64,000 nt of DNA from Eukaryota sp. GEM-RC1 (taxonomy: Eukaryota): positions 1,302,001-1,366,000 of the forward strand of contig JAUFOQ010000006.1 in assembly GCA_040285855.1 (NCBI GenBank), written 5' to 3'. The first letter of the stretch is position 1, and each line of letters starts with the position of its first letter. The position numbers and the translations under genes are program-made. The notes beneath the pieces were generated by a model, which was not told the DNA's origin, did not search any database, and saw nothing but the letters and a program-made list of their open reading frames with translations. Of the stretch, positions 6,971-63,917 are shown piece after piece.

Positions 6971-7279
6971 CTAGGGGAATAAGAGAGAAGGCGGCAGAAG
7001 CGTTGGTGTTATAAATAATTGTGTTTCAGTGATGCAGTCAAACTTCAAGAACGTGTTAACACCTGATAAAAGATCAAGATCATTATTAACATAACGATAT
7101 CGAGCAAACTACTGCCTTGGTATCTGAGAGATAGTGGAAAAGGAAAATGAAGTCACCTTTACAAGAACGAGTTGTTCAAAGAACTGGTAACAAGTTATCC
7201 TTTTTAAAATACGAATTAAAATAACACCTTTTGTTTCCAAATACAATTAAAGAATATCATCAATCTTAACACAGAAGAC

Positions 7280-7620
7280 CCTACATCACCTCAAAGGCAT
7301 GTCTTAATTCAAAGAGACGGTATAAAATCGAATCAAAATACCTAAACAATGCTATAAAAAAGGAAAAATGACACCCTTCTTCAATAAAAACTGTCATTAA
7401 ATTTTTGTAGCCAAGCGTTGGATGGAAAACAAAAGGATTGTGTCAACGAGAATTCATCTTTGTAATTCATTCTCAATAACAATTCAATTTTTTTCCTTTC
7501 AACAGGTCCAGGAGCTGAATAGATTTCGTCTAAAATTTTGTTAACAGAAGTTGAGTTACAAGGATCAACCATAGGAAAGTCCATAATTACTTCTTGAGAG
7601 GACAACCAAGGACTGATCAA
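7280..7620 (-). mobile_element. Degenerate 3' fragment of an RLE-type non-LTR retrotransposon
   Basis: ISPWLSSQEVIMDFPMVDPC resembles the IGPWLSCQEIVVDFTTVDPC copy at 53534-54088. Confidence 0.65.
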
Positions 7621-7677
7621 ATCAGATTAAATGTTTCAGAGTAACAACACGATTTATACACAAATAACTTGAAATAA

Positions 7678-15506: not shown

Positions 15507-16140
15507 CTAATATTTGATATCATTAAAACAACACCCGTCGCTATCAAACCTTACAACAGCTTTGTCCTCATAAAAGAAACTCACTGCTAATAAAGCTTTG
15601 GAGATGATTAGGGGAATTGTTTTAAAAACAGTAAAAACGATCCGATTAACCCATAACATATGATCAAAACGTTTTTTCATCCTATTTTTTACGATTTTTC
15701 CGAAGTCGTTTAAAAAATTCAAAGCACATTTTCCTAAACGTCCGTAAATTGGAAACAGCAAAGGGCATAATTCGTACTCAACAGGTTTTACATGTTTTAA
15801 AGCCATCAATGGTTTCGTGTACTTATCCTGTTTGGCCTGTTCAGAAATGTCTAAAGGAGAAGTTTCAGACGCAGCGTTCTTTAATGATGTCTTTTTACAA
15901 ACATCCACTGACACTACATCAACAACAAACAATTTGTCTGAAGAAGAAGGGGCAACAACATCTGCTCTCCGTTTACCAAAAAATTGGTTCTGTTTTTCGA
16001 CAATACAATTATTACTTGGTTCTAAAGATCTTAGAAGTGGTTCAACAAATTACTCAATTTTGTATGACTTACACATAGCATGTATTTGATCTCTTACAGC
16101 ATCATACATACACGTTCGGTAAGTTATGTAGCGATTACAA
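15507..16140 (-). mobile_element. RLE-type non-LTR retrotransposon 3' fragment (zinc knuckle + restriction-like endonuclease)
   Basis: YDAVRDQIHAMCKSYKIE..., GKRRAD, VVDVVSVDVC, EQAKQDKY, YGRLGKCA, WVNRIVFTVFK. Confidence 0.8.
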
Positions 16141-16294
16141 CTTAACAGATTTATATTTACGAAAATTGAAGAAAATGGCAACAATTGCTCGATTATGAGT
16201 TGCTTTATGACAAATCCAACCACCGGTTCGGTTTTATTTGATATCATGAATTGAACACCACTTGGGCCAAATTTCGATTGATTTAATGTTTTTA

Positions 16295-20539: not shown

Positions 20540-20750
20540 ATCATAAAAGCAACATTCATTGCCATTAAAACTCACATCAGTTTTTTCTTCACAAAAAACA
20601 CTGAGAGCTAACAGAGCTTTTGAAATCATAATAGGAATTGTTCTAAAAATTGTAAAGACAATACGATTCAACAAAAACTTTAAATGAAATTTCTTGTTTA
20701 CTCATTCTTTAACAGCTTTCTCAAAATCAGAGGGAAAACAAAGATCATCC
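20540..20750 (-). mobile_element. Short 3' fragment of the RLE retrotransposon family
   Basis: Sequence similar to 56785-56900 and 15590-15720 (LNRIVFTIFRTIP). Confidence 0.65.
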
Positions 20751-30768: not shown

Positions 30769-31060
30769 CTAGAAGACACTAGTTAAGGTACTAGTATCTG
30801 AACTAAATTCCACCTGACTAGAATCAAACAATTTAGCTAAAATAGAATTGAAATATCTAAACATCGACCGAAACAAATCAAAAGTCAATCTTGATAAATC
30901 CCGCATTGAACACCTTTCCATACTTGAACACAATTTTCCAAAAGAGACTAAAAACTGTTGAGCTGAAGGTCCAATATTACCATAAAGGGTTGAAAACAAA
31001 ACAATTATAACTATCAGCATTCAGCCCAATAATTGAGTCACCATATTTTGTGCCCTTACC
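30769..31060 (-). mobile_element. RLE retrotransposon 3' fragment
   Basis: STLYGNIGPSAQQFL...FDLFRSMFRYF. Confidence 0.7.
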
Positions 31061-31878
31061 ATTTTCCGCAGTCCTAAAAAAGGAAATGACATCTAACTGT
31101 CAAATATACAAAAAGCCGATTTATGTGCGGAGAAAAGCACACAACAAGAAAACAACAAATAAATAAAGACTATTAATGATAAAACAAAGCGGTAGTATCA
31201 AAAACTCTGATTAAAGAAATTATTCAACGACCACGACGTAATTTTGGAAAAGCATCAAAGAGATCCTCAAAAGAGTTCCAGTATTTCCAGAAAAGAAATG
31301 ATATCTACTACTTAACAAATATAAAATCCCGTGTTTAATGATCAGATGTACTTTTAAGCGGAGGTACCAAAGTGGCATGACCATTCTCTTGGGTTAGACT
31401 GGAACCGAGTTTTTCAACCATTAGGTATGTCAGAGTTTGAAGAAGTTTGGCACATAAACGCAAAAGACAAAAATTTCTTATCCCATGACAAAGAGAATGA
31501 GATGAAAAGATAAGAAAACAACAGCGTCCTTAAAAACAGCAAAAAGATGATACAGGTACTACAACATCCCCAGATAAAAGGACAACAGAACGTACTGTAT
31601 TGTGATCAACCTAAGTCATGATGAACAAAACGAATGTGAAGACAATACGTTGAAAAAAAGGGGTTGAGTCTTCGCTCTAATACACCAATCCTTTGCGGAG
31701 GTGTTGCTAATCATCTCTGTCTAGTTTCCATTTTAGTGGAGCCAAGGGACAAGCCCAAGGCTATTCCATTAATGCAATGCGTTTGACTCAAAAGTATTGA
31801 GACCCAATGCTTTATCCGACACTTTTACAGTCTGTAGTGTGACGTAAAACAAAATAAGTCTCCCCAAATGTTGGGTTC

Positions 31879-32390
31879 TTGCTGTTTACTCATGAAAACT
31901 TCGAACAAAGTAACAAATCTCGACATGACAACAATCACATCTTCTCAGATCCTCAACTTAGTAGTGTTGGTTTCACTTCATCTAAATGGTGGACAAAATC
32001 AGCTACCAATCATTATGCTGTCAGAGATCAAATTCATGCCATGTGTAAGTCCTACAAAATCGAATCTTTCGTTGAGCCACTGTTGAGATCACTTGTGATC
32101 AATAATGTTAAAAATAGTGATTTTGATAAGACTTTTGGTAAAAGAAGAGCTGATGTCATAGTTCCATCAGTCAATGATGAACTAACGGTTGTTGTTGTGA
32201 TTACTTGTGGATGTTTGTTGTATTTAGAGATGCTAAAAATGAAATGCATCCCCTTGATTTTTCAGAACATTATAAGAGAAACAAATACTATTACCGTGTA
32301 CCCTTGACTGCTCTCAAATAGACAGGGCACGTTGAGTACAAATTATGTCTTTTTGCACTTTCAATTTATGGTCGACTTGGATGCTCTTCC
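31879..32390 (+). mobile_element. RLE retrotransposon fragment
   Basis: HYAVRDQIHAMCKSYKIESFVEPLL...FGKRRADVIVP; same family as 15507-16140 and 56785-57200. Confidence 0.8.
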
Positions 32391-32395
32391 TAGTG

Positions 32396-33012
32396 TAGTA
32401 TACGGTTTAATTAGTCTGGATCAGACTAATATTCATTGTCATTCTGATGTTCAAAAATATGGATTAGTCTGGATCAGACGAATTAAAATCGCGACTAATT
32501 TGCATTTATTTTTATTAGTCTGGGTCAGACCAATATGTCATGAAATAAATTAGTCTGAATTTTTGTTTTGGAATAGAATCACAGCAAACTCAAATTGTAT
32601 ATGATTAAGCATCTATAACTTATTCATCATACTAACTTCATCACTTTTGAGCCTTGCTACCATTAAAGTCTTATTGATGGTTTGCAACGATTTCCTGTTG
32701 CTAAGGCTTCAACAAGATGAACGGCAGGTTCTTCGTCAAGTTCAATAGCGTCGTCATTTTCTTGAAAATGATTCTGTTGCGATCGAATTCTCACGACACC
32801 ATTTAAGATAGAGAAACTATGTGATGGGGAATTAAAAATGGCAACTCAATAGCAGCAATATGGCACCAATCTTCTACTGACGTTTTTGGAGATGGGTTCA
32901 AAATTCAGACTAATTATCATAAAATTGGACATTTTTTATTTTTGATATACTAGAATAAGAATTAGTCTGGATCAGACTAATTTAAAATCCAGACTAATTA
33001 AACCGTTTACTG
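32396..33012. mobile_element. Tc1/pogo-like MITE
   Basis: 25-bp TIR (C/T)AGTA(A/T)ACGGTTTAATTAGTCTGGA with internal TTAGTCTGGATCAGACTAA near-palindromes; TSD not clear. Confidence 0.65.
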
Positions 33013-33655
33013 TTGTTTTCTTTCTGAATACAAGCAAGATTCCAATACAAGCTTAGTAGGGTATGCTTGCATTGTTTCCCTTGGTAAACTCACATATTTG
33101 TTTAAACAATTACTAGTTTTGATGCACAAACGTTTGGAATTTTTCAGTCTCTAGACAAACAGTTTGATCATAAGTTTTGGTTGAATCGTGTTGTCTTTAC
33201 AAACAATTCCTGTTTTGATTTCGAAAGCTCTTTTACTCTTAATGTTTTTTATGACGAAAAAGCTTCTGTGAGTTTCAATAGCAATAAATGTTGTTTGAAT
33301 TATATTGAGTTCTAGTCTTTGCTCACTACTTCTGTTTAAAAAATCGTCTTGAATTGCATCCACAAACTTTCTTTTCAGAAAGCTGCTTGGAGCTATTGCA
33401 TCTCTATTGCAGAGTAATGAGAGTAGTGATGACGTGTAGTTTATGATCCTTGTTACCTTTGATAAACAATTCTTCTCTTTGGGACCTTAGAAAGGCAACA
33501 TGTCCTTCAAGAAACTGATAAGCCACCATCCAGATTCAATAGAGTCTGAAAGAACAGTGTCTTTGAATTGCGATCAGGACTAATCTTCTTTATATTGTGG
33601 AAGTAAAAAACCAATCTAAAAAAACAAATTTCACTTTACATAGAAGAATAACAAT

Positions 33656-35989: not shown

Positions 35990-36171
35990 TACAACACTTT
36001 TTGTATCTCTTACATACAGGGTACATTGAGAGTTGACAGGATGATCCAATTGCTCTTTTCCTGGATTCTTCTCAACTTGTGGTTGATTGCAACAGTTGAC
36101 CCGGTTCCAAAAGTCTATATGGAATTAACCAAATATGACGGGGTTTCACCCGTCAGCTAACAAAAATAAAG
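35990..36171 (-). ncRNA. Putative Fanzor omegaRNA
   Basis: Immediately 3' of the Fanzor stop; stems TGACGGG/CCCGTCA, TTCCA/TGGAA, TTGAGA/TCTCAA with inner ATCCA/TGGAT; boundaries inferred. Confidence 0.45.
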
Positions 36172-38460
36172 CTAATTTCTACATAAGTACTCCACTCTCT
36201 CATCACTACCATTCATCCAGTGTTCGAACATGTTCATCATGTTCAAACAAGCCATCTTGTTTCGATTCCAATACATTTGAGTGGGCACTGTGTGCCCTTT
36301 CTTTTCCCCCTTTCAATCGTTTCTTGACTTCTCCCAGACAATGTTCACTCCTACACTCTAGTAAGCCATGTGGGTGAATCCATTCTCTTTTCTCTCTTGA
36401 TTTGGGCTTTGGGTTGACAACCTCAATGGAAGTTTCAAAAACATCTTCATGACATTCTGGACACTTGGACGAAGTGTTTCTCTCATCATTCATCACTGTT
36501 AAAAAACCGTTTCTCTGAAAGAATGAAGTCCAAGTCTTAGTTCTGGATGGTGGACTGTGTTTTAAGTTGGACATTGGCTTCTGACCTAAATCACCAATAC
36601 ATAGTACGATTTTGTCACGGCTACCAAAAGTTTTTACAATGCTGTTAACCAATTTAGACTCTGTCTTTTGCTTATGGACATGATTTTGGATTTTGTGAAT
36701 CCTCCATATATGCAAAGCATAGAAGTCTTTAGTTGCATTGTAATGAATACATTTAGCCAGAATAAACTTTCTAAATTTAGTGTAATTAACAGTTTTAGAA
36801 TCATGTTCTTCACTTAACCAAGTGTTCCATTTCTCAATTTTCATTGTCACAGTTATTGGATTATCATCACCTGCTCTCACGGTAGTAGTACCTGATCTCC
36901 TTCTAACAAGGTACTGGTGGATTCTTTTATGCTTTCGTGAAACTCTAGACCACTCAGCATATGTCAATCGTAAGAAGTTGTATTTCTTTAGAGGATTTTG
37001 AGTTTCCCTATTTGATTTAGATGCAAGTTGTAGCATATCTCTCTTTCCAATGTCCACATAAACCATTTGTTTAGAAATATAATCAGACCTATCACATTCA
37101 TTGAAATATTGTACTTTTACTGAAGCTTTACTTGAATCAGGTTTACATTTCATACCTTTCAGATCCTTTCTCACAAATTGAAAACAAATAGAAATTCCAT
37201 CAGTTACAGCATAGTTGTTGAATTCAAAATTGGCTTTGTCAAAACTTCTGTCTTCACAGTTAAACCATCTTTTCCAGTAATCTTGTTGTTGAGAATGGGT
37301 CATGTTTTGGATCTGGTCTTTACTCATATAATTAGTCACTTTCGAATGTAAAGGACCAATCTTCTTATCATTATTCTTATATCCAAAACAGTGCTTAGCC
37401 AGTCCCCAAAGAGTTCTAGTATCTATTGGGAAAAAACAGGGAGTATTCTCTAAACTTAGAGGAATTACATTATACAACTTAGCACCCTTTGATTCCAAGT
37501 AATCTGAGATTTGAAGAGAATTTCTTAGAAAATGAAGTGGATACTCCTGAACGGTGTAAAGTAAATTATGAACGTCTACAGTTTCATTGTCGTTAGTAGT
37601 GATTGTAGCAGGAAATATGATGTTAAATCTTTGAAGTAGTTCTGGAATTTTATCAGCCATTAGAGAATTAACCTGTTCAAATATTAACATACTGAAATCA
37701 TCATCAAAAACTTTAGAAACTTCATCAATAAACTTAACATTTTCAGGGTGAGTGGCAGAGTTAAAAGAATTAATATACTGTAAGGCTTCATCTCTAGGTC
37801 GATACAAAATCTGGTCTTTCAACATCTTTAAACGAAATCTGAAGTAACTAGTGAACTTTTGTGCTTCACGACTTGTTAGTCCTGCAAGTTCTGGACCTAA
37901 AACCAAATTACGTTTCTTTTTCATTCCCTTTTCAAACTCTTTCTTACCCATTACTGTATTGATAAATCTTTTAATGTACAACTCATAATTGCGGCGAATA
38001 TTTAATTCAAACGCAGGCCACATTTCATACTGAGTAGTCTATTCAAAAGCTCTACTGATATGATCAAAATCAAGTTCTGGTAAATGACATGTGCCAAATG
38101 TATCAGTAACACAGTGCTTATATCCAGGGTAGTTTGAGTCAGCATTATAGATTCCTTCTCCAGCAACAAAATCACGAAGGTCTGGATCAATCGTTCGTAT
38201 AGGACTATTATTTGGAATTTTAAAGTTATGAACTTCAGATGAAAGATTTCTAATTGAAAGCATTGTATGATAAAACAACTTGTAATCAAACTTAGACAAA
38301 TCTTGTCCAAGACGATAGCGAGCCAACAGATATTCTTTAACACACATTGTAGTCTGTTGTCTTAACGCATTGTAGAACTCAGATCCTAAAAGCATGGCAT
38401 CTTGAACTTCTTGATGTTTTACCACACTAACAACTGATGTTTTAATAGAAGCCCATGATT
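36172..38460 (-). CDS. Fanzor1 (eukaryotic TnpB-like RNA-guided RuvC nuclease) domain, ~760 aa, interrupted by one in-frame TAG and one frameshift
   Basis: WASIKTSVVSVVK N-terminus, ELNIRRNY, TDGISIC, RuvC-I YVDIG, IGDLG, RuvC-II NDERNTSSKCPEC, HGLLEC..C, RuvC-III YWNRNKMACLNM, ends ERVEYLCRN*. Confidence 0.88.
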
Positions 38461-38489
38461 GAAAAACAATTTTGTCTTTTTGAAATAAA

Positions 38490-39240
38490 ATAAACAATTT
38501 AAACGCCAGAATTGAATCATGAAGACAGTAGTTGATTAGCGTTTTCATTCTTTTATCACTTCTTAAACAATCAACTGGGAGTAAGTGGTCCAAGTCTTTA
38601 TCCAATTTCAATTTAGGTTCAGAAAGTAAATTCCAAGATAAATTGGCTAGACTACAACCATACTTGAGACCAATATACTTCTTTGCAAATAAGAAGGTAT
38701 CCAAAACTGTAAAACCATTGTGATCTTTTATGATATCCAGCCATCGACTATGTAAAGGCAACTGAATTGGATTTGGATTTGTTAAAAGAGGAAGGTCAAG
38801 AGCCCACATTCTATTGTCAATTATGGGCAAATCAAAATTGAAAATATTATGGCCAATAAAAGCATTTGGTTTATATTGACTAACAATATTAGCGTACTTA
38901 ACCAATAATTCTTTTCATTTGGGAAGTCCAAAAGATCTAATTTAAAAGCTGGTGTTTCTGAATCACCAAATTTGATTTTATAATTGTAATCAGTGTAAAG
39001 GACGATTGAGCTGTCAAATTGTAACTCACCATTGGATTGCAATTTTGCAATAATGACAGAGATCATGATGATTTGTTGATCTGCGAGAAAATCAATGTCG
39101 TGAGCTTCTTTCTCAAAATCATTCATTAACAATCTTCTCTGTTTCAAAGACTCTTTTCCGTTCTACGATGTTTATTCAATTCTTTGTTCACTCGTGTAGG
39201 AATTCTCTCATTGATATTTCTTGTTTCAATATCAATTATA
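38490..39240 (-). CDS. Family-B DNA polymerase-type (DEDDy/DnaQ) 3'-5' exonuclease domain, fused in frame to Fanzor
   Basis: ExoI IIDIET, IIMISV, NEKELL, ExoII IGHNIFNFDLPII, ExoIII NYCLHDS; no polymerase motifs; two homopolymer frameshifts. Confidence 0.82.
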
Positions 39241-39739
39241 AACACTGTAGGAAGGTTGTCATCAACAACAGTATCAGTTGCAATGTCAATAAATGGAATT
39301 CTTGATTCTTTTTCCTTTTTTCCTTTAACAACTGGAATTTCAGGAAATTCATTCAAAGAACCAGTTGAACCTTCAACTACTTGCGAGCTTTGACATTCTT
39401 CGTCAGTTTTAGGGAATTTTGTACAACCACTAGATTGATCATACAGTCTCTGTTGACGTTTAGAACCTTGTTCTTGAGGACGATGAATTACTGACGAATG
39501 ACACTTTTTGGTTTCCGTTCTAGTCGTCGTGCTTTAGAGTTTTTGACGGATGTGTCAGATGAAGAAGAATAACTTGATGAAATTTTATTAGTTACTTCTA
39601 GAGTTTTACGACGAGATAACAGACGTGTAGAAGGTTCAGAATCGGAAGATTTATTTCTTTTCCAGCAGGTTGATTAGTTTTGGGAGATTTTTTCTTTCCA
39701 GTGTCCGATCTACTATGTTGTTGCTGAGGAAGTGTAGGT

Positions 39740-40370
39740 GGAACTATTGTTGGTTGTAAAGATTGAAGATACAATTTTATTACTTGCCTACTCTCTTGAG
39801 CATTGATAGAGTTTTGCAACAATATACCAGCAGCTTGAATAAGAGGTTGATCTGAGAATTCATGTGAAGTGAGAAGTTCTAAAAGTCCTCTCATATACTC
39901 AAGAACATAAATTCCACAATCATTTGGTGTTTGCTTCTCTATCACTGGAACAATAATGAGTCGATACTGGAGTTGATGAAGAGTTTCGTCTATTCTCGAA
40001 ATAACTTGATTCAAAAACGAATTAATTTCATGTAAATTCTTACCAACATCCTGTCTGTGATTTTCAACATCATAAAGAGGATCGAGAAAGATGAAAAGTT
40101 CATCATGTGTATCGATTACAACCAAACCCCAATGTATACCAGAACTTTCGTTGATCAATGCGTCATTTATTGGAAGAAACAGATATCTAGAATTTGCCTG
40201 AAGAATCTTGTTGATGAAAAATTGGTGAAGAGATTGATTTTCATGAACTAAAAATGATTGAACAGATCCAGGAGTTACAAAGGCGTTTAAATCAACTCCA
40301 TATATCTCCATCAAATGTCAAGAGTACCAATTAACACAATCGTCCACAATCCAACCATCAGGTGACAAAG
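39740..40370 (-). CDS. Ulp1/SENP8-like cysteine protease domain 2
   Basis: GWIVDDCVNWY, FLPIND...GIHWGLVVID, FLDPL, KQTPNDCGIYVL (H-D-Q-C); in-frame TGA at 40318-40320. Confidence 0.8.
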
Positions 40371-40684
40371 TCTTGATTGCTTCTGAAACCTCTTTTAAAT
40401 CATTTTGTGTCAGAGCATTGGGATTTGAATCTGGAATTTCATCAGGAGATGACATAAGTGTTGAAGGTTCAGATATTTCAGAAGTACCAACAGATGTATT
40501 CATTTGTTGTTGAGATTGGGTTGAATGAACGTCAGTAGGTAACCCTAGGTAATTCCTTATTTCATTATTTAACATAGTCCTGTATACTGTAGGATCAAAA
40601 GTTTGATAAGATAAATCGAATTGACATGTGGTGAATGCGGTACAATGACTTAAACCTAACAACCGATTGTATTCTGTGTAAAAC

Positions 40685-40965
40685 TGATTGATGGCATTTT
40701 GATAGTCATTCTGTGCCTTTTCTAAATGTTTTACCTGAGTTTCTGGGTCGTTTCTATTGATCAATTCTTGCAGTGATTGCACTTTCTCATCCAATAATGG
40801 AAGTTTATACTTCAAATCAATAATTATCAACTGATTGACCGCATTTTGATAGTCATTCTTTGCGTCTTCTAATTGTTTTACCTCAGTTTCTGGGTCGTTG
40901 TTATTGATCAATTCTTGCAGTTTTTGAACTTTCTCCTCCAATATTGGAAGTTTATGCTGCAAATC
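40685..40965 (-). repeat. Two tandem 147-bp (49-aa) helical repeats within the polyprotein
   Basis: KLPILEEKVQKLQELINNNDPETEVKQLEDAKNDYQNAVNQ / KLPLLDEKVQSLQELINRNDPETQVKHLEKAQNDYQNAINQ. Confidence 0.9.
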
Positions 40966-40968
40966 AAC

Positions 40969-41733
40969 TTAATTCAAAAGCTGGTTATTGAAGCTTTTAT
41001 ACAAAGTTTCAATCACATATAAAACAAAAATCCCACAATCATAGTCATTGTTTTGTTGTGGTACACTTAGATTGTGAGGATGAAAAAGATTGCTAGCACG
41101 TGCTACATGTTCTTTGGTTGAATTTAAGAACATTTTTCCATTAAGGGAATCTGCGAAATACAAATGACTCAAAGCAAGATCGTAAATAGCAAGTCCCCAA
41201 TGACTTCCAGGAAATAATGCAGTTATAGCATCATTAATAGGCATTACTACTAACACTTTACCAACGTTTTTAGATTTAATGGTTGCAGAAACATCGGCCA
41301 AATTATCTTGATTTCGTATAGCGCTGCCAAACTCCATAGGGTCGAAATCTCCTATAATCTCTGCAGCTAAAGGATACTTTTGTGCTATCAAGTGATGTCC
41401 AAAATTTAAATGTGAAGATTCTAGCCATGTTTCATCATCCAGAGGACTAATACCACCAAAAGCAATTTCTGGGCCAGGGTTTGACTCAATGTCTCCGTCC
41501 ATAGTCAAATCACGGACAAATTGTGATGACTGGAGATTTATGTTGGTTTTTGTAATACAACAAGAACAACAAGAACCACTACAGTATGGAGTACTATAAC
41601 AAAAACAAAAAAGAAATAGAAGAGATTTGAGGATCGAGGGACCCATGAAAATCTTCATAAAGACCTGACGGTCTTGAGCGAAAATAAAGCAACAAACCAA
41701 GCAAAGGAGTGATCTGAGGATCAAAAGACCCAT
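40969..41733 (-). CDS. Hydrophobic leader + 2A peptide + Ulp1/SENP8-like protease domain 1
   Basis: ETWLESSHL, MPIND...GSHWGLAIYD, FADSL, PQQNNDYDCGIFVL. Confidence 0.82.
   Translation of the reverse strand: MGLLILRSLLCLVCCFIFAQDRQVFMKIFMGPSILKSLLFLFCFCYSTPYCSGSCCSCCITKTNINLQSSQFVRDLTMDGDIESNPGPEIAFGGISPLDDETWLESSHLNFGHHLIAQKYPLAAEIIGDFDPMEFGSAIRNQDNLADVSATIKSKNVGKVLVVMPINDAITALFPGSHWGLAIYDLALSHLYFADSLNGKMFLNSTKEHVARASNLFHPHNLSVPQQNNDYDCGIFVLYVIETLYKSFNNQLLN
41470..41520 (-). other. 2A/StopGo ribosome-skipping motif FVRDLTMDGDIESNPGP
   Basis: Exact match to the GD(V/I)ExNPGP consensus. Confidence 0.85.
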
Positions 41734-41929
41734 AGAAGGCTCCTGACAGTGGGGAGACGAAGCACAGTGAGATATCTAACCAACACGAAGTCGATAGACA
41801 TCTCACTAAGCGAATGATCTTAAATTTCTGTTTGAACTATTTGTGGTTAATGTCTACATTGACATGTTGACATCTTGACGATGGACTGCATTTTGTCTAC
41901 AGTAATTTCACTGGAAATTTGTAAATAAT

Positions 41930-42415
41930 ATGCCGTTACATCTACCTCACCAATGTAAGAACTCTCTTCGCAAGATCAGAACAACACTTCGCAGCTTACA
42001 TCACCCTGCTTCAAAGTCCTCTAGTGCTGACACTCATTCGTACTATATTGATGTTCCCGAACAATGCGATCTTCACAACGTAGTACTTATATATGATCAA
42101 GACCGAGAATTATTTCGTCCCGCAACGCTTTCTGATCCGCCTCATTGTATAAATCATTTAGCAATCATCCCACTTACGACTCCTCTGAAGCTCACTAACC
42201 GTACAGGAAAAGTGTTTCTTGTCACACAGGTTTGCCAGGAATGCTCACAGTATTTTGTTTCTTTGGATCCTCTTCCTGTGATGACGTCGTCTCCTGATAA
42301 CGTGGTAGTCACTAGTCCTCCTTCTGGTCCTACTTCTGGTCCTTTCTTGTACCCTCTCTTGGACAGAGAGGAGACAGATAGTGCACCATCAGCCCCTGTT
42401 ATGGATGATATTTGA
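41930..42415 (+). CDS. Hypothetical 161-aa protein divergent from the polyprotein
   Basis: ATG-started intact ORF with a CxxC motif; no recognised family. Confidence 0.4.
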   Translation: MPLHLPHQCKNSLRKIRTTLRSLHHPASKSSSADTHSYYIDVPEQCDLHNVVLIYDQDRELFRPATLSDPPHCINHLAIIPLTTPLKLTNRTGKVFLVTQVCQECSQYFVSLDPLPVMTSSPDNVVVTSPPSGPTSGPFLYPLLDREETDSAPSAPVMDDI

Positions 42416-42669
42416 GTGATCCTTTGACAAGTTCTTCTTTCCCATGTAGGTGATCATTAATGACTTGTGTATTAAACGTATGATCATTATGTTTCTTCTA
42501 TCTTTGTCACATTTTTATGAATATTTAGCCTTCTAATGTTCTTCTAGTTTGATGTGATTCATTTGATCAATGAAAGAGCTCTGAGAAAAAACAATCAAAT
42601 TTGATCTTGGTGACAGTAGACATCTACTAACACAAGATTTGCTACAAACATCTACTGTAGTAAAATCCA

Positions 42670-43380
42670 TTAATGATTGACTCGATTTAAGCCACGGAGT
42701 ATGGAGATCCCGTCTTTTTGATCAGTAAATTCATTTTCTGAAAGATGATTCAAAACTGGTTCAACTATAGAGTGAAAACCATGCGCTTTAAACATGGAAT
42801 AGCAAGAATCACGTACACCATCATGAATTACTGCACGTAGATGAATATAATATCGACAATTAATTAAATGACGAAATACACCATTAGCTCCACAAGAACA
42901 AGTCGAATAGTTTAATAAATTTGCAGGCCAAATAGCCAAACGAAGACGCATATTGATCATCCAAGCTTCATCAGATAGATGAAATGCCAACACATTAGGA
43001 ATTTGAGAAATAAATCCAGAAGGTCCACTATTACAAAGGTCCATTAAAAAAGCAGCGAACTCGGGACTATTAGTTTTAGCCAAGCTAATACGATTATTAA
43101 AGTCCAAGAGTTCAAACTCCTTGTCAATTTATTTTGGAGCTTACATACAGCAGACGGTAGAGATGAAATATTTTTTAAAGGAGTCTCATTCAATTGAGCA
43201 GGGAACAAAGATTCTCACATTTCAGGAGACAAAGATGATACCAAATCTTTAGCAGATTGAATCCAACGGCAATTACTGGAATTCAACAGATTGATTCCAT
43301 CCAAGGGAAACCGTTTCAAAAATTCAAACATAAAATTCTTAACACCTCCTAAAAAAGCAGATTTTCTAATGATTTTAGCA
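42670..43380 (-). mobile_element. RLE retrotransposon fragment (post-RT region and zinc knuckle)
   Basis: WMINMRLRL, CSCG...HLINC...HDGVRD. Confidence 0.8.
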
Positions 43381-46050: not shown

Positions 46051-46713
46051 CGGTTTCTCTTTTTAATTGTGTTTATTTTATTTTATTAACTCGAATGTTT
46101 CTTAACTTCTTTAACATTTACGTTTAGAATAAACAGTTTTGTGCCCCATAATATATGTCTGCTATTTACATTCATCACCGAAAAGTACCGTTAACTGAAC
46201 ACGGATCTTCGTGTTCAGTTAATAGTTCCAATGTACTATTATAATGGTAGATGTATAACAAAGTACGTCATGATATTTGCGAAGTACAATAATATTGTCT
46301 TTCAGTCTTTTGTGCATCTTTACATTGAAATATTGGTCCTAAGGAGTTCTTAAATTTGTTTGAAAATTTGGTAAGAAGATCAACAGATGGATCGCAATGG
46401 AAGATTAAATTTGCTTGTTCGATTTTAAAGTCAATGTATAGATATATTGATTCCGTTTTGTCCAAGTTGTTTGGTGGCAACTACTTTTCCGAATTGGGTT
46501 GTTCTTTTGATAATTAAACACGTGTTTTGATTTGGTTTTTTTTGTTTTGATAGAGTATATTTGGATTATTGGAATACAAATCCATTTTAATGGGAGCTTC
46601 TAGGTGGTTAAATCCTTTTGAAGTTATACTGTTGACACCAATTTAAGCACACGCAATATTATTACACTAAGGTTAATTTGACTGGATTCAAGAAAGTCAA
46701 TATTCTTCTTCAA

Positions 46714-51763: not shown

Positions 51764-53149
51764 TTAAGAAATCATAGAATGAGAATCAACCAGTTCAAAG
51801 AAATCTTCACTAATTGTTTGGTAGCGACTCATAAATTTTAAAAATTTGGTCTTAACAGAAGAATTAACTAAATACTCAATGTTCGTGATCTTATTCCCGA
51901 CAAAAATTAAATAATTCTGTAAATTTTCAATAGAATCACGAAGTGCATTTGGACTGCAAGGATTCGGTACCACGGCAAGCTTGGACACGATATCTCCACA
52001 GCGGTCCTTTAAAACATCTAAATCATGTTCAAATTCATCCAGAATTTTTAAAAATACTGGTGAGGGAAGATTCACAGACAACATCTGATCTAAGATTAAC
52101 AAAAATTCAAAATTTTAAACATACTATCTTTGATAAATCCGACACTTTCTTTTTAATCCAGATATTTCTGAAGAAATCCACCTTGAATGTTCCATTAACA
52201 CCGACACCCGCAGTTTAACTTCTTTACAATTCTGAACAAGAGACTTTGACTGGATTGCCAAGGAAGCAATAGGATTTGAAGAAGAAAATAGGTTGGAGGA
52301 GAGCAGCTCTTGAACGTTGTCTTTTGAAGTGATGGACTTGGTTAAAGTTTGATGTTTCTTGATATGTTTGTTTAGCTCTTGCAGCTGAGATTTGAGGTCG
52401 TTGGGTAGATCGGAGAACTTAGTGGTTTCTGAGAAGTGGTGGTAAGCAGGGAAGTACTGTGTAATTGGTTGGGTAGGGGTGGGGGCGCTGTAAGAAGAGG
52501 TGCCAAACCCACTAAAGCTCGGTGTGGGCTGAGTGGGTTGAGATTGTCCAAAGAGCGAAGGTTGAGTTGTGGTATTTGATGATCCACCAAAAGAAAACGA
52601 TGGAGTTGAAGTAGTTCCTGAAGGTTGAATTGTGGTATTTGATGATCCACCAAAAGAAAACGATGGAGTTGAAGTAGTTCCTGAAGGTTGAGTTGTTGTA
52701 TTTGATGATCCATCAAAAGAAAACGATGGAGTTGAAGTAGTTCCTGAAGGTTGAGTTGTGGTATTTGATGATCCACCAAAGGAAAACGATGGAGTTGAAC
52801 TAGTTCCTGAAGGTTGAGTTGTGGTATTTGATGATCCATCAAAAGAAAACGATGGAGTTGAAGTAGTTCCTGAAGGTTGAGTTGTGGTATTTGATGATCC
52901 ACCAAAGGAAAACGATGGAGTTGAAGTAGTTCCTGAAGGTTGAGTTGTGGTATTTGATGATCCACCAAAGGAAAACGATGGAGTTGAAGTAGTTCCTGAA
53001 GGTTGAGTTGTGGTATTTGATGATCCACCAAAGGAAAACGATGGAGTTGAACTAGTTCCTGAAGGTTGAGTTGTGGTATTTGATGATCCACCAAAGGAAA
53101 ACGATGGAGTTGAACTAGTTCCTGAAGGCTGACCAAAAGAAAAAGACAT
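51764..53149 (-). CDS. FG nucleoporin Nup58/Nup49-like
   Basis: FSFG repeats, TKFSDLP..L...I, LPSPVF...FE coiled coil; 35-nt intron 52090-52124 (GTATGT...TTAG). Confidence 0.72.
52557..53128 (-). repeat. Nine near-identical 63-bp coding tandem repeats (QPSGT(T/S)STPSFSFGGSSNTTT)
   Basis: Direct inspection. Confidence 0.95.
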
Positions 53150-53533
53150 GGGTGATTAGTGTAGGAAAATCTTTGTGAAAATTGTAAAAGTGGAAGACTT
53201 TTGATCAGGGAAAAAACACAAGAAAACAACAAATAATAAAACTACAAAACATTATTCAGTACCCAATAAGGTAACATTCCTACAAATCTATGAAATTGTA
53301 AAAACAAACAAATAATACTAAGATTAAATCCAAATGACTTCATCCCCATCCGGTTAACATTTGCGTTGTTTCGTTCAATGCACAGATATTTTAATTCAAT
53401 TTTAGGTAAGTTGTTCGGTGATGGACAGAAGGATCATAGTTTAGATACTTTAGTTAGTGTCTGTTAGTAAAAAAAACGGATTTATGTGCGGAGAAAAACA
53501 CATAATAAGTTAAGTACAAATAGATAAACACTA

Positions 53534-54088
53534 TTAAAACAAATTATCAAACGAACTACCTAATTCCGAAAAGTAGTTGCCTCCAAACAACTTGGACAAA
53601 ATGGAATCAACATATCTATACATAGACCTAAAAATCGAAAAAGCAAATTTACTCTTCCAGTACGATCTGTTAAACTTTTTGCCAAGTTCTGAACACAAAT
53701 TTTCAAATAAACTTAAAAACTCCTTGGTAGAAGAACCGAAATTTCCGTACAATGAAACTGCAAAAGGCTGAAAGACGATATTATTGTGTCTTCGTGAATT
53801 CAATGCAGCAACTTGATGTCCATACTTAGACACTTTGGCGTTCTCAGCGTCTTTCAGCGGATCATTTGAGGGATTCAAAATGTTGGCAATAGCTGAAGCT
53901 TTGCAAGGATCAACGGTCGTAAAATCAACAACAATTTCTTGGCATGACAACCAAGGGCCAATAAAACCACCACGTTTCTGAGTAGAATCAGGGTGATCTG
54001 AAAGATGAGAAAGTAATGGTTCGACTTTGCCATGGAAACCATTTGCCTTAAACATTTCCAAACATGTATCTCGAAGACTGTTGTGCAA
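53534..54088 (-). mobile_element. RLE retrotransposon 3' fragment
   Basis: HNSLRD, VEPLL, VVDFTTVDP, AENAKVSKY, PFAVSLYG, WKSKFAFSIFR. Confidence 0.82.
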
Positions 54089-54429
54089 AATTGAACGACA
54101 ATATATGAACTTAGTCTGTTAGTTATTAACTTCTGCAAATGCATTTATTTCACTGACTGATCATAAACCCCGTTTTATTCCCCATCCGGTAAAAGATTAC
54201 CTTTTTCAACATTAACCTTCACACCAAACTTGTACAATTTCTCAATTAATCGAGAGAAATAGAAACGCATATTCCGATATATGGAAAACACTGTACGGTA
54301 TTTCCATTCAGCCATTCTAAACTTCCGCTTCTTTTCTTTACACAGTTCTTTGAAATCCTTGAAAAATTGATCACCATCATAATGTTATTGTACTTATTGC
54401 AATATATTATATTATATATTATTTATATT

Positions 54430-55160
54430 TTCTTGGAAGCAAAATATGCGTCTTCGTTTAGGTTTATTCCCTAGTGGTTTGCTAAATAATTCAATCTGTG
54501 TTTGCGATAACCGAGCTACAGCCACATTTCGTCATGTTGTTAGTTGCAAGAAATTTTTGCAATTTCGACCTGTTCTACATAACGCTATTCGTGACGTTAC
54601 TTATGAAATGTTCAAATCCTACAATTATAGTTGTAAAATTGAACCTCTTCTGAAACATTATAGCGACAATAACGTGTTTGATTCTCGGCGTGGTGACTTA
54701 ATTGCTCCTTTCCTGGATTCATCTCAAGTTGTGGTTGATTTTACTACAGTTGACCCGTTTGCAAAAGTCTACCAAGACTCCATATTGAATGATTCGAATG
54801 GTCATCTGGAAAAGGCTGAACAACGAAAGTGTTCAAATTATGCGGATGCTTTGCAGAAGCTTAATGAAAATCTATATTCAAAGTTTTCATTTGTTCCATT
54901 TGCCATTTCAATTTTTGGAAATATTGGTCCAGCCGGTTTAAAGTTAATTAGTGATTTTAGTCTTTTATGTCGTTCTAATGGCAAGGTGTTTAATAGCGCT
55001 GTATGGATTAATCGAATTATGTTCGCTCTTTATAGAAGCATTCTCAAGTATTTATGTTCCATTTATTCGAAGTTGTATAGGGACAATTCTCGTGTTGATG
55101 TGGAGAATTTAACTTCTTTCATTTTCTGAATTAGTATGTATTAATTTATTGTTGCAAATA
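54430..55160 (+). mobile_element. RLE retrotransposon 3' fragment, next to a hAT right end (TIR-like CAATATATTTTTTCCAATCCCTG, ~55182-55204)
   Basis: MRLRLG, CVC...HVVSC...HNAIRD, RRGD, VVDFTTVDP, AEQRK, PFAISIFG. Confidence 0.85.
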
Positions 55161-56784: not shown

Positions 56785-57400
56785 CTATACCTTACTAGTA
56801 GGAATTGTTTTAAACATTGTAAAAACAATACGATTCAACCAAAACTTGAAATCAAATTTCTTGTTCATTCTTTCTTTGACAACTTTGTCAAAATCAGAGA
56901 GAAAACAGAGAGCATCTTTACCAAGTCGACCATAAATTGAAATGGCGAAAGGACATAATTTGTTCTCAACACGTCTAATATGTTTGAGAGCAGTCAAGGG
57001 AACAACATATTTGTTTCTCTTGTATTGTTCTGAAAAATCAAGTGGAGAAACTTCATTTTTGCATCCTAGTCCTTGAATGCATTTTTTTCTGCAAACATCC
57101 ACAGTACTCACATCAAAAACCGTTAGTTCATCATTGACTGATGGAACTATGACATCAGCTCTTCTTTTACCAAAAGTCTTGTCAGAATCACTATTGTTTA
57201 AATTATTGAACTTTTTCGGTACCCAAAAATGTAACCTTCCTACAAACTATGAATTTGCAAAAACAAACAAACAATACTAAGATTAAATCCAAACGACTTC
57301 ATCACCATCCGGTAAAAGATTACGTATTTAAACATCTACAATTTCTCAAGTAATCGAAAGAAATAGAAAGTCATATTCCGATAAATGGAAAACACTCTAA
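56785..57400 (-). mobile_element. RLE retrotransposon 3' fragments of two families
   Basis: GKRRAD, YKRNKY, YGRLGKD; 57218-57400 matches 53258-53355 and 54178-54292. Confidence 0.78.
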
Positions 57401-60229: not shown

Positions 60230-60395
60230 GTTACAAGATGTGTAACACAAGATTTGTTTTACAAGATGTGTTTTACAAGATGTGTAACACAAGATTTATA
60301 ATGCAACATTTGTAATACAAGATGTGTTTTACAAGATGTGTAACACAACATTTGTAATACAAGATTTGTAACACAACATTTGTAATACAAGATGA
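60230..60395. repeat. Degenerate tandem minisatellite (ACAAGATGTGT/ACAAGATTTGT/AACATTTGT units)
   Basis: Direct inspection. Confidence 0.85.
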
Positions 60396-62895
60396 AACTA
60401 TCAAAATTACCTATATTGTCCAATCTTTTCAAAATTAAATATAATTCAAATAAAACACACATACCAGTCTTTTCATCATTTTTCAAATATTCTTTCAAAA
60501 CATGAAATAATTCCACAAGCACATCACTACAATAACGTTCATCAACATTATCCCTATTAATCACATCGGTAATGTAACAGTTTCTTATTGTTTTCACTTC
60601 CATACTTGATGCAGATTCAGATCCAATACAATCTAGTACATTATCGACAATTGACTGAATTCCAATAGTTAAGTCAACTCTCAATTGTTTTGAAGTAGCA
60701 ACACGATCATACTCCAAAATAGGAGACAATGATATTGTTTCATAATTCACATTGTCAGTTTGTTGATATTCACATATGGAATCACATTGGTCATTTTCAA
60801 CAATACTTTCAGTCTGAACTTCCTTGAGACAAAATCGTTTTTCATCATCAATAAGAGGAAACACTTGGGAACTTTTTCTTTCTACACCAGCATTAATATT
60901 CTTTTGTAGAAGGAAATTCTTCGTTGGTAAAGGGGTTTTCTTCAAACGAGGGAGCGATGGTAGAGTACTGTTGCCTCGTGGTAATTGAGGAAGTTTACAC
61001 TTTTTCACACAAACCTCTGGAGAATTTTTGTTAAAAATAGAGTCACAATTAATAAATTTGGGAGGAATATTAGTTTCATCTTCTTCAAGTTCATCATTTA
61101 CAACAAAATCATCTAAACTTGTTGAAATTGTATCACTGTCAGATTCATCACCAGAATCGGATCCTGATAGTAGTGCTTCTGTTTCAAATAAATTTGATTT
61201 TTCGAAATGATTTTTGTCCAAGTCAATAATTTGATTATCATTATTTTCAATAATTTGTTCATCAACATTATCAACAATAACTTCATCAACAACTTCATCA
61301 ACACAATGAACATCTTCAGGAACAACAACATCATCCATAATTGGTTCACTCGATTCTGCACAAAAGTTTACAAACAATGAATCAAAATGATTGAAATCTC
61401 GTTGAAGACGATGTTGATTTCCCAAAACATACAAATCAATAGTGGATGGCTTAACAGGATGAAAAGTTGAATAATACCATTGATACAATTCCAAATTTGG
61501 TACTGGATAACTTCTTCCAATGCTTAAAATCTTTAAACTCCTCCAAGACCTAACCCTACTTAAAGTCACATAAAGTTGGGCATATTCCCAAAACTGGATA
61601 GCAACTTCAATCCCGTCAATTGTTAAACCTTGGGATCGATGCACTGTTATCGCCCAGCAAGGTCTTAGCGGAAACTGAATTCTTTTCGCCACTTGAACAG
61701 GTCTTCCGATTTCGTTCAAGTGTTCGATAGCAAACCTTGACTGACTGATTCTTTTCGGTTCTGCTTCAGCGTTGAACCGAACATCAATATATGTATCTGA
61801 AAAATTAACAATAACTCCTTTTGAACCATTAACTAGTCCAAGTTCAGGCTTATTTTGAGTGTACATCACTTGTCCACCCAAAACGCAGTCTAGTTTTTTT
61901 CAGCAAAGTCATCCAAGCGACTTGTCAGGACGGAAGTTTCAATGTCATAATATTTTTCCAAATTAGATTCATTGACTGGAAATCTACAACTTCTTTTTCT
62001 AATTTGAGATTTTAATTCAGATTCATTGAATTTGTCAACAGCTACAAATTCAATTGAATCTGAATTTTGGCCAGAATTTTGAATTGTTTCAAATTTTCTC
62101 TAGCAACATCAGTATTCTTTCCGTATAAAATTGTTTGGTTTTCAACAGATTCTGCTGTTTCGAAATGAGTACGCAGAATTGATTTCATAAAATTATCTAA
62201 CAGACCCAATCTCAATTGATTTAGAAAATTAAAAAATTGTGAGTCTGATTGTTGCCGAATACTTCCAGCCAGTTCACAATATTTAAAATTTAAATTGTTC
62301 CAAGCTCTTGATGAAAAAGCGAAATCTGAAATTACCACTTTTCGATTTCCTTTTCCATCAAGACTTTTCTAACAGGGGCTAATTGAAGAAAGTCCCCAAA
62401 ACAAATTATCTGAATTCCTCCAAATGGTTTCTTCGGGGAGTGACATTTTTGCGTGTGCATAAGTTCGCTCAAAATGTCACTCGCCCGTTGAAACAATTTG
62501 GAGGACAACATTGAAATTTCATCAATGATCAACATTGAATTTCTTGCTGTAATTTTTTTTAACAAAATTTTGACATTTGATGGCATACATTTGATAACAT
62601 CATGTATGGATTCTTCTTCTTTCATAAGCTTATAACCAAACAGTGAGTGTATGGTCTGTCCACCAAAAACAGTTGAGGCAACCCCAGTTGTTGCAGTGAA
62701 GAAGATTTCACCATTAGCACGCATGAGACGAGATCCAACGTTACTCCACCAGTTTTTGAGAGCATGTAAAAGATAAGATTTTCCTGATCCTGCACCGCCA
62801 GTGACAAAGAAGTTGCGTCTGCTGGTAGTGATTGCGTTAAAGATCTCACGTTGGTCATCTGTGAGATTGATGTTGTGTATAGTGGTTGGTGGCAT
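60259..62895 (-). CDS. PIF1-family (SF1B) helicase with long acidic C-terminal extension, frameshifted; probably transposon-borne
   Basis: TGGAGSGKS, ATTGVAS, TIHSLFG, IIDEISM, FGGIQIICFGDFLQLAPV, LVNGSKG, QFPLRPCWAITVHRSQGLT, QLYVTLSRV. Confidence 0.88.
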
Positions 62896-63019
62896 TGAGT
62901 TGATGGATTGTTTGAGCGCAGGGAAACTTGGTCTTCATCAAATTTCTCTTTCAGAAGCCCCTTATCATACGTTAGCTTTGTCAGAGAGTGATGTTTTGTA
63001 TGGGTTTGGGTACAATGCC

Positions 63020-63917
63020 CAGAATCAGAAGCTGAGCGATATAACGTATATTTGAATTCTTTCTACGAAGATGACTGGTTTAGAAAGAGGAAATTCCAAA
63101 TTTATTCAAATAACCAACGGTCGGAAAAAAACATGCTGGAACGCTTCAATTTAACATATGGACCTCCAGAAGACGTCGTCATTGGCTATGGGGATTGGAG
63201 CTCAAAAGGTAAAACAAGAAAGGGCAAAACCTCTACTGTGGAAATCCGTAAAATGTTAAGAAAATATGGATACCAAATATTTCTTGTTGATGAATACAGA
63301 ACAAGCAAGTGTTGTTCCAAATGTGCTAAGGAAAAATCAACTTTCGTAGAATGTGAAAATGTTTCAGAACTAAAGGTTCTTGGTCCCAAAGGCAAGAGAC
63401 AGCTAAGAAGGAAGAAGAGAAAGTTAAGAAGAGAAATTTTGCTCAAAAACAAACAAGATCCTCTAAACCAACGGGATTTTTGGAAGCAGAGTGGGAGGTG
63501 AAGCAGAAGTCATTGGAAGAAGAAGCTAAATCCACACCCTGGGGACTGGTAAGGTGCTCAGGTGCTAAGTGTGGTACTTATTGGAATAGAGACCTAAATT
63601 CTGCCATCAATATCTATTCCATCATTGAAGCAACGATCAATGGTCAAGGTAGACCATCCGCTCTCGAGAGATCTAAAACTCAAACAACAGATCTCGAGAG
63701 TGGTAAGGATACTTTGGCGAGAGACCAGAAGAAGAAGAAGACTGCGACCAAAAAGAAGAAAACTTCAACAGGAAAGACTCGTAAGAAACCAACATGTGGA
63801 AATTGTGGCCAAGAAGGTCATAACAAAACGTCATGCAAGAATCCACCAAAAGAAATGAGTTCGCCTAAAAGAAGAAGCGTAAAGTCAGTCAAGAAGAAGA
63901 AGGTCTCTCGTAAATAA
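63020..63917 (+). pseudogene. 5'-truncated Fanzor (RuvC-II, zinc finger, RuvC-III) with basic tail and CCHC knuckle
   Basis: FRKRKFQIY..NQRSE, IGYGDWS, LVDEYRTSKCCSKC, WGLVRC..C, YWNRDLNSAINI, GRP, CGNCGQEGHNKTSC; frameshift near 63478. Confidence 0.85.

Follow-up and report, generated by a model that had tools for sequence, protein, structure and literature searches.

Does a eukaryotic RNA-guided nuclease carry its own end-trimming enzyme? This question is raised by a locus in a 64,000-nucleotide (nt) stretch of Eukaryota sp. GEM-RC1 (contig JAUFOQ010000006.1, positions 1,302,001 to 1,366,000; hereafter ‘the window’, meaning the whole stretch analysed), where the minus strand of positions 36172 to 39240 encodes a 3'-5' exonuclease joined to a Fanzor. 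A preliminary description of this DNA had proposed either an RNA-guided nuclease coupled to 3' end trimming or a RuvC-impaired guided binder, and had pointed out that the canonical RuvC-III aspartate (Asp) is replaced by asparagine (Asn), perhaps through simple decay by a G-to-A transition. As judged from sequence comparisons, the exonuclease–Fanzor fusion is real and old and, with the added analogy to a characterized Fanzor, the Asn is neither decay nor the sign of a dead enzyme. The first proposal is retained as the best reading, both activities being predicted: with a probability of about 0.5, intact copies would encode an RNA-guided nuclease with a D-E-N triad that cuts DNA and then trims the 3' end, oriented towards homing. 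This estimate draws on sequence, a structural model and analogy to known systems.

Within the window, ExoIII (YCLHD, 38530-38516, minus strand) is followed after 20 codons by the sequence WASIKTS (38455-38435). Both lie in one open reading frame (ORF; 38039..38914), and the junction between exonuclease and Fanzor is unbroken in the raw DNA. The parts of the fusion are as follows.

38480..39239, minus strand: PolB-type (DEDDy) 3'-5' exonuclease domain with two frameshifts (PF03104, profile, fold)
39239-39222, minus strand: ExoI motif IIDIET (sequence)
38854-38831, minus strand: ExoII motif GHNIFNFD (sequence)
36172..38470, minus strand: complete Fanzor1 (WED/REC/RuvC/TNB) with an in-frame TAG and one frameshift (motifs, alignment, fold of a relative)
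37057-37043, minus strand: RuvC-I motif VDIGK (sequence)
36487-36470, minus strand: RuvC-II motif DERNTS (sequence)
36270-36259, minus strand: RuvC-III motif WNRN, with the Asn codon AAC at 36261-36259 (sequence)

The three Exo motifs, earlier called intact, are all present, but ExoI is read in another frame and is separated from the downstream ExoII by two frameshifts (~39153-39156 and ~38914-38950). The in-frame TAG (38039-38041) falls 138 codons past WASIKTS, WNRN sits past another frameshift (~36302-36312), and an upstream protease part is interrupted by TAA (40969-71), TGA (40318-20) and a break near 39480-39640 (stop near 39600). Counting all lesions, no fewer than three in-frame stops and four frame breaks interrupt the window copy, which is broken and not one open frame. 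A special genetic code behind the stops was rejected on two grounds: read with table 1, the host genes nearby form long open frames, and the relatives have no stop where the window has one. The RuvC-I Asp and RuvC-II Glu described earlier were both found, alongside a C4 zinc finger (CPEC...CRSEHC), as was the difference from a second Fanzor in the window, whose WNRD has GAC (63582-63593) in place of AAC. The resemblance of the window's parts to an exonuclease and a Fanzor is not due to chance, because PF03104 matches the window exonuclease with E 1.4e-7 and full-length relatives reach E 3e-103.

What do less damaged copies look like? A 902-amino-acid (aa) read-through of the window ORF, with X at the stop, was searched against 1.84 billion proteins, and the best 150 of 751 matches were examined. 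We scored 87 proteins—the members of the clusters, complete except for the closest one, which lists 15 of its 18 members—and counted a column only where a protein aligned there with local support. The family is multi-copy in the relatives, with clusters of 18, 11, 10 and 7 members. Relatives with a named source come from three isolates: Eukaryota sp. GEM-RC1 (93-96% identity with the window), TZLM1-RC (~50%) and TZLM3-RCL (~30%). By strain name these would correspond to skoliomonad metamonads (10.1101/2023.05.03.539051), and the host likely belongs to that lineage. Among the best 150 matches, an exonuclease was found only in proteins later named from these three isolates, and in none of the other Fanzor-like matches.

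The span from ExoIII to RuvC-III lies within one chain in 14 of the 87 proteins, with all three isolates represented, the remainder being fragments or truncated; ten of the 14 retain every scored Exo and RuvC residue. Two relatives, P0196 (1846 aa) and P0202 (1905 aa), are intact and laid out like the window, as leader-2A-Ulp1-Ulp1-linker-Exo-Fanzor, and P0196 aligns with the window across 41529 to 36181. Intact relatives thus translate both parts in one chain, as the preliminary description had proposed, and neither absence nor separate translation of the exonuclease was seen in them. The junction recurs in about eight families from the three isolates and is constant in length: in all 36 relatives scored for it, 25 residues separate the ExoIII Asp from the KT motif of the Fanzor. 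None of 16 2A-like motifs found among the relatives lies between exonuclease and Fanzor. A profile search returned five of these proteins (hereafter, the clade) and one ordinary PolB; a metagenome scan with P0023 gave 589 pattern matches, none confirmed, and in the Atlas the stretch around the exonuclease junction led only to PolB exonuclease clusters, all below 0.9. In P0178 (TZLM3-RCL, 2027 aa), a DEAH-box helicase precedes the exonuclease-Fanzor; this was seen once, is possibly a gene-model merge, and was left unused.

The exonuclease bears the marks of a functional domain. All motifs of a PolB-type DEDDy 3'-5' exonuclease are present (ExoI DxE, ExoII Nx3-4D, ExoIII YxxxD) and are kept in the clade proteins: ExoI D in 28/28 and E in 27/28, ExoII N in 31/32 and D in 32/32, ExoIII Y and D in 36/36. 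PF03104 matches the long relatives with E down to 3e-17, and the top exonuclease match of the sequence profile is Pol delta (E 6e-12). Downstream, no polymerase domain (PF00136; palm/fingers/thumb) was matched, the chain running directly into the Fanzor. We hold the clade exonuclease to be very probably active. Representative families are only 22-60% identical in this domain, and trees built separately for the exonuclease (10 rows) and for the Fanzor N-terminal half (9 rows) have all three resolved groups in common; the distances correlate as well (Mantel rho 0.45, p 0.04, 8 families). Because catalytic residues are kept across such divergent families and the trees are congruent, the sequences indicate that the fusion is old and under selection. 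Eight clade members split from 26 chosen other Fanzors with 100/99 support in a tree built without the RuvC-III column, and a wider quick tree of 139 rows gave clade support of 86-94.

A structure prediction of the fusion, run for the relative P0179 (1096 aa; AlphaFold2, 129-row alignment), gave a PolB exonuclease joined to a complete Fanzor1, with a mean predicted local distance difference test (pLDDT) score of 75 and a predicted template modelling score of 0.73. In this model, residues 383-1096 correspond to SpuFz1 18-631 (Z 27.7, root-mean-square deviation 3.1 over 573 residues; Foldseek E 8e-29), with PpFz1 at Z 25.5 and GtFz1 at Z 22.2. Residues 132-377 form the exonuclease (Z about 12-13), for which Pol alpha, RB69, ASFV and Pol delta are tied. 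The fold search places the start of the Fanzor at WASIKTS; the earlier label of this site as the Fanzor N-terminus is right, because the modelled exonuclease ends about six residues before the first WED strand. The RuvC-I Asp, the rearranged RuvC-II Glu (ExxTS) and the C4 zinc finger align to SpuFz1, PpFz1 and GtFz1. By motifs and predicted fold, the protein is a Fanzor1 and not a DNA polymerase.

Does the RuvC-III Asn spell a dead nuclease? It is the state of the clade, in 40 of 41 proteins (GEM-RC1 1/1, TZLM1-RC 8/9, TZLM3-RCL 31/31), which speaks against its origin by simple decay. Among unnamed Fanzor-like matches, 100 of 105 have Asp, and one of the five Asn rows (P0132) groups inside the clade. 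The other four (P0048, P0063, P0144 and P0163) are unrelated and lie outside it on separate branches, so the D-E-N triad likely arose several times. RuvC-I D (43/45) and RuvC-II E (47/48) are kept, and the loss of RuvC catalytic residues that marks nuclease-dead, TldR-like TnpB/Fanzor proteins is not seen. The clade's WNRN aligns with WNRN of GtFz1 and WNRD of SpuFz1, the literal RD of the 2013 Fanzor motif being absent. GtFz1, with Asn at this position, cuts DNA in vitro and is less active as N658D, and SpuFz1 becomes more active as D606N (PMC11423790). The protein-level comparison of copies thus found mostly WNRN and not WNRD, but this majority does not confirm an inactive RuvC, because GtFz1 cuts DNA with the same Asn. 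By sequence and by this analogy, the RuvC of the clade is quite probably active.

Where does the element end, and what might guide it? Two features adjoin the 3' end of the gene.

36118..36260, minus strand: candidate omegaRNA scaffold and right end of the element (fold z -2.2, with 7 of 200 shuffles folding as well)
36048..36117, plus strand: 3' flank and candidate guide, part of a retrotransposon-like repeat of the restriction-like endonuclease (RLE) kind that is cut off at the Fanzor end (repeat similarity)

A 7-bp hairpin (36155-36136, minus strand), one of three such in the 64 kb, lies 16 nt past the stop; Rfam has no match for the candidate omegaRNA stretch. The hairpin resembles the 3' subterminal hairpin of Helitron2 elements, an unspecific likeness, as omegaRNA stems look alike. 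The flank is 87.5% identical over 72 bp to a repeat at 54700-54771, which we take from its motifs to encode an RLE, Pfam giving no match. Because the repeat similarity breaks off at the Fanzor side, the sequence suggests an element end near 36118, and the guide would be read from the RLE-like repeat. Fragments of this kind abound, ~9.5% of the window being no more than 60 bp away from one, so the repeat at the flank may be there by chance. The rest of the repeat was not found at the element's 5' side. No convincing terminal inverted repeat (TIR), asymmetric TIR (ATIR) or target site duplication (TSD) was seen in the window copy, only chance-level inverted matches of 9-11 bp; nor was a 5' hairpin identified there. 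No transposase was found in the window copy or in the proteins of the long relatives, nor a Helitron2 Rep domain in the polyprotein. At least 11 places in intergenic gaps hold RLE-like fragments, none with a Pfam match: 7219-7626, 15567-16151, 20633-20749, 30790-31078, 32002-32396, 33139-33201, 36028-36124, 42554-43128, 46308-46514, 53351-55126 and 56788-57246. A GC-richer ORF of 169 codons (41906-42415, plus strand; 161 aa, 41930-42412) diverges from the 5' end of the polyprotein; it has no Pfam and no usable Atlas match and was not assigned to the element.

How might the two activities work together? An omegaRNA from the 3' end of the gene would guide the protein to an empty target site, where RuvC would cut the non-target strand 14-17 nt beyond the target-adjacent motif (TAM). 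This would leave a displaced single-stranded 3' end as a substrate for the exonuclease; proofreading exonucleases normally act on such ends and prefer them. For the Fanzor1s tested, the cut in the non-target strand falls 14-17 nt past the TAM (PMC10432273), and in the model the exonuclease is attached to the first WED strand of the Fanzor, which lies on the TAM side. Trimming in the 3'-5' direction back towards the TAM would then remove the 14-17-nt non-homologous tail, and repair synthesis would copy the element in (homing). The tail would have to be removed before copying ends because it would lack a partner in the element-bearing donor, an argument that assumes a donor element directly after the TAM, as in TnpB homing (PMC10690162). 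Trimming would also block perfect re-ligation. TnpB drives homing via break-stimulated recombination (PMC10690162), the 3'-5' exonuclease of the polymerase and DexA affect the efficiency of T4 intron homing (PMC2988022, PMC12153337), and in yeast the proofreading activity of Pol delta removes up to 40 nt from invading 3' ends (PMC10868807). On balance we lean towards the view that the exonuclease trims Fanzor-cut ends.

Several points weigh against this cut-and-trim reading. The substrate of the exonuclease—a cut DNA end, the omegaRNA or a transposition intermediate—is assigned by family membership only, and the exonuclease part of the P0179 model is less sure, pLDDT being 40-80 in many blocks of 10 residues. 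The scored counts hold many near-identical copies (P0006 matches a stretch of the window's own ORF exactly), and DNA-level work covers the window copy alone, relatives being compared as proteins. A D-to-N exchange gives no gain of activity in Cas12 or TnpB (PMC11423790), and in human cells no indels were detected with GtFz1, on which the D-E-N analogy relies (PMC10432273). Finally, among seven GEM-RC1-type proteins that reach the C-terminus (the window, P0008, P0010, P0012, P0015, P0016 and P0013), WNRN is in frame in one; ahead of WNRN, a G/A run (36302-36312) is the site of the same frame slip in five, and another slips otherwise. The relatives' assemblies are polished nanopore sequence (10.1101/2023.05.03.539051), so the shared slip may be a systematic long-read error, or else a real shared lesion or +1 recoding. 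Ribosomal slippage by -1 at this run was rejected, as the frame needed is +1.

A bolder possibility, which we hold to be rather unlikely, is a transposase-free homing element: it would find its site by RNA guidance, cut, and trim to the TAM, so that the primer would end exactly at the insertion point. Host repair would then copy in the whole 6-kb element, which would reach many loci by homing into repeats.

The pair might instead serve as a weapon, the exonuclease turning each cut into a deletion and so destroying targets such as competing retrotransposon-like repeats. We give this a small chance. The 3' flank, from which the guide would come, is a conserved motif of a repeat abundant in the window, and TREX2-SpCas9 yields larger deletions and more mutations (PMC13370227). 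Against this, the flank is known from one copy only, the fraction of intergenic space close to such fragments is likely higher than the ~9.5% found for the window, and the remainder of the repeat was not found at the element's other end.

Of similarly small probability is an exonuclease that merely shares the chain with the Fanzor, as an accessory enzyme that processes rolling-circle or excision intermediates or degrades DNA that would alert the host. Accessory DnaQ-like 3'-5' exonucleases do occur in polyproteins of mobile elements (PMC6338049), and Fanzor1s sit in Helitron2 elements with a 3' hairpin (PMC3627910), a hairpin being present here too. However, the remaining modules differ between relatives in how many there are and how they are arranged, and 2A can split them off, whereas the Exo-Fanzor junction, of about six residues, is invariant in length and never carries a 2A.

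Improbable, too, is a role in omegaRNA maturation, in which the exonuclease would trim the 3' end of the guide to length. Some DEDDy enzymes are RNases. The flank-derived 3' guide of a Fanzor is moreover protected only to ~15 bp (PMC11423790). Yet the closest matches of the clade domain are DNA proofreading domains (Pol delta by profile, PolB by fold), and Fanzors without an exonuclease mature their guides in yeast (PMC10432273).

The impaired binder of the preliminary description, which would deliver exonuclease and proteases without cutting, fares worse still, and we consider it very doubtful. In its favour are the replaced Asp, the lack of benefit from D-to-N in Cas12 and TnpB, and the slip common to five of seven close copies, which would remove RuvC-III; it is contradicted by the retained RuvC-I and RuvC-II residues and by GtFz1 and SpuFz1, in which the same Asn is active or raises activity (PMC11423790). 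An accidental origin of the fusion or of the Asn in this copy, through decay or gene prediction, is hardly credible and already refuted: the window copy is indeed riddled with lesions and GAC to AAC is a single transition, but the junction is contiguous in DNA and repeated across isolates and families, the Asn is near-universal in the clade, and congruent trees and clade support of 100/99 stand against it.

The cut-and-trim reading leaves the modules upstream of the exonuclease to be accounted for.

41470..41493, minus strand: 2A-like ribosome-skip motif DIESNPGP, after a poorly conserved leader (sequence; kindred motifs in 16 relatives)
40990..41259, minus strand: first Ulp1/C48 cysteine protease domain, with its His near 41202 and its QxxxDCG near 41055 (PF02902 E 3e-7, motifs)
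40682..40967, minus strand: 147-bp tandem duplication within the inter-protease spacer (two copies, 88% identical)
39874..40197, minus strand: second Ulp1/C48 cysteine protease domain, with its His near 40134 and its QxxxDCG near 39933 (PF02902 E 3.9e-10, motifs)
39240..39600, minus strand: low-complexity Lys-rich linker with a stop and a frame break inside (pLDDT <50 there in a relative's model)

Both protease domains contain the His-Asp-Cys triad and the QxxxDCG motif of Ulp1/C48 enzymes, and they correspond to P0196 residues 66-318 and 402-603, respectively. DIESNPGP is presumably a 2A motif, a label given from its appearance with no library match behind it. Motifs of the form DxExNPGP occur in 16 relatives (for example P0023, P0026, P0009, P0196, P0040 and P0206), with the variants DVHKNPGP and DIHPNAGP, and their placement relative to Ulp1 shifts between families: relatives have no, one or two proteases, with 2A before or after them. 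When the protease region of the window served as query, none of 7997 candidates that were scored gave a match. The 2A and Ulp1 parts are variable accessory modules that likely aid expression or counter SUMO-type host control.

The rest of the window is gene-dense eukaryotic DNA, with genes for a dynein, a cullin and a TLC protein. The second Fanzor (62992-63917, plus strand; WNRD) is 5'-truncated and frameshifted, belongs to another lineage and has a Cys/His knuckle-like C-terminal tail. It adjoins the start of a broken PIF1-like helicase gene (60259-62934, minus strand; PF05970 E 2e-29), and the two may be a Helitron-related remnant. A common origin with the clade was rejected: it falls outside, on a long, unsure branch. 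At 52557-53132, a 63-bp tandem array encodes FSFG-type repeats, likely of a nucleoporin.

How does the clade compare with known systems? It shares with Fanzor1 proteins (SpuFz1, 8GKH/9CEZ; PpFz1, 9CF0) the WED/REC/RuvC/TNB body, the RuvC-I Asp, the DExxTS Glu and the C4 zinc finger; it adds the N-terminal PolB exonuclease and the 2A/Ulp1 modules (1200-1900 aa) and has Asn at RuvC-III. The D-E-N triad and WNRN are shared with GtFz1 of Guillardia theta (9CER), whose solved chain has no exonuclease. As GtFz1 is more distant by profile (E 1.6e-17) than SpuFz1 (1e-49), the Asn of the clade likely has a separate origin. Family-B polymerases (Pol delta, RB69/T4 gp43, herpes UL30) have the same Exo motifs and fold in their proofreading domains, but the clade lacks the polymerase domain, the Fanzor starting where the exonuclease stops. 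In TnpB cut-and-copy and T4 td intron homing, the element's nuclease likewise cuts at a distance from the insertion point, and 3'-5' exonucleases (T4 43Exo, DexA) affect homing; in those systems the host or the phage supplies the exonuclease as an enzyme of its own, whereas in the clade it is fused, and homing is proposed by analogy.

Engineered TREX2-Cas9 (PMC13370227) likewise tethers a 3'-5' exonuclease to an RNA-guided nuclease; the clade differs in being natural, in using Fanzor and not Cas9, in its PolB-derived domain and in its fixed short junction. The non-autonomous Helitron2-type Fanzor1 elements CRe-1, 2 and 3 (PMC3627910) are also multi-copy, with a subterminal 3' hairpin and no transposase of their own; an exonuclease is unreported for them, and the ATIR, 5' hairpin and TSD could not be identified in the window copy. 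In the main texts of PMC3627910, PMC10432273, PMC10711439, PMC10530073 and a 2026 review (PMC13565253), the word ‘exonuclease’ does not occur. The literature consulted contains engineered fusions and no natural Fanzor-exonuclease or Fanzor-Ulp1 fusion, though survey supplements might list such proteins.

The clade would be a natural counterpart to engineered nuclease-exonuclease editors and, as a whole, is fixed for the D-E-N triad described from GtFz1. A single mutation in each active site would put the homing idea to a direct test in a eukaryote, and no reconstruction is required because intact natural copies exist in public protein sets. Should the transposase-free homing possibility be true, the clade would represent a cut-trim-copy system of natural origin, after which Fanzor editors favouring precise insertion or defined deletions could be modelled. 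The retention of a proofreading-type exonuclease across families of only about 25-30% identity points to the processing of cut ends as part of what Fanzors do in their hosts.

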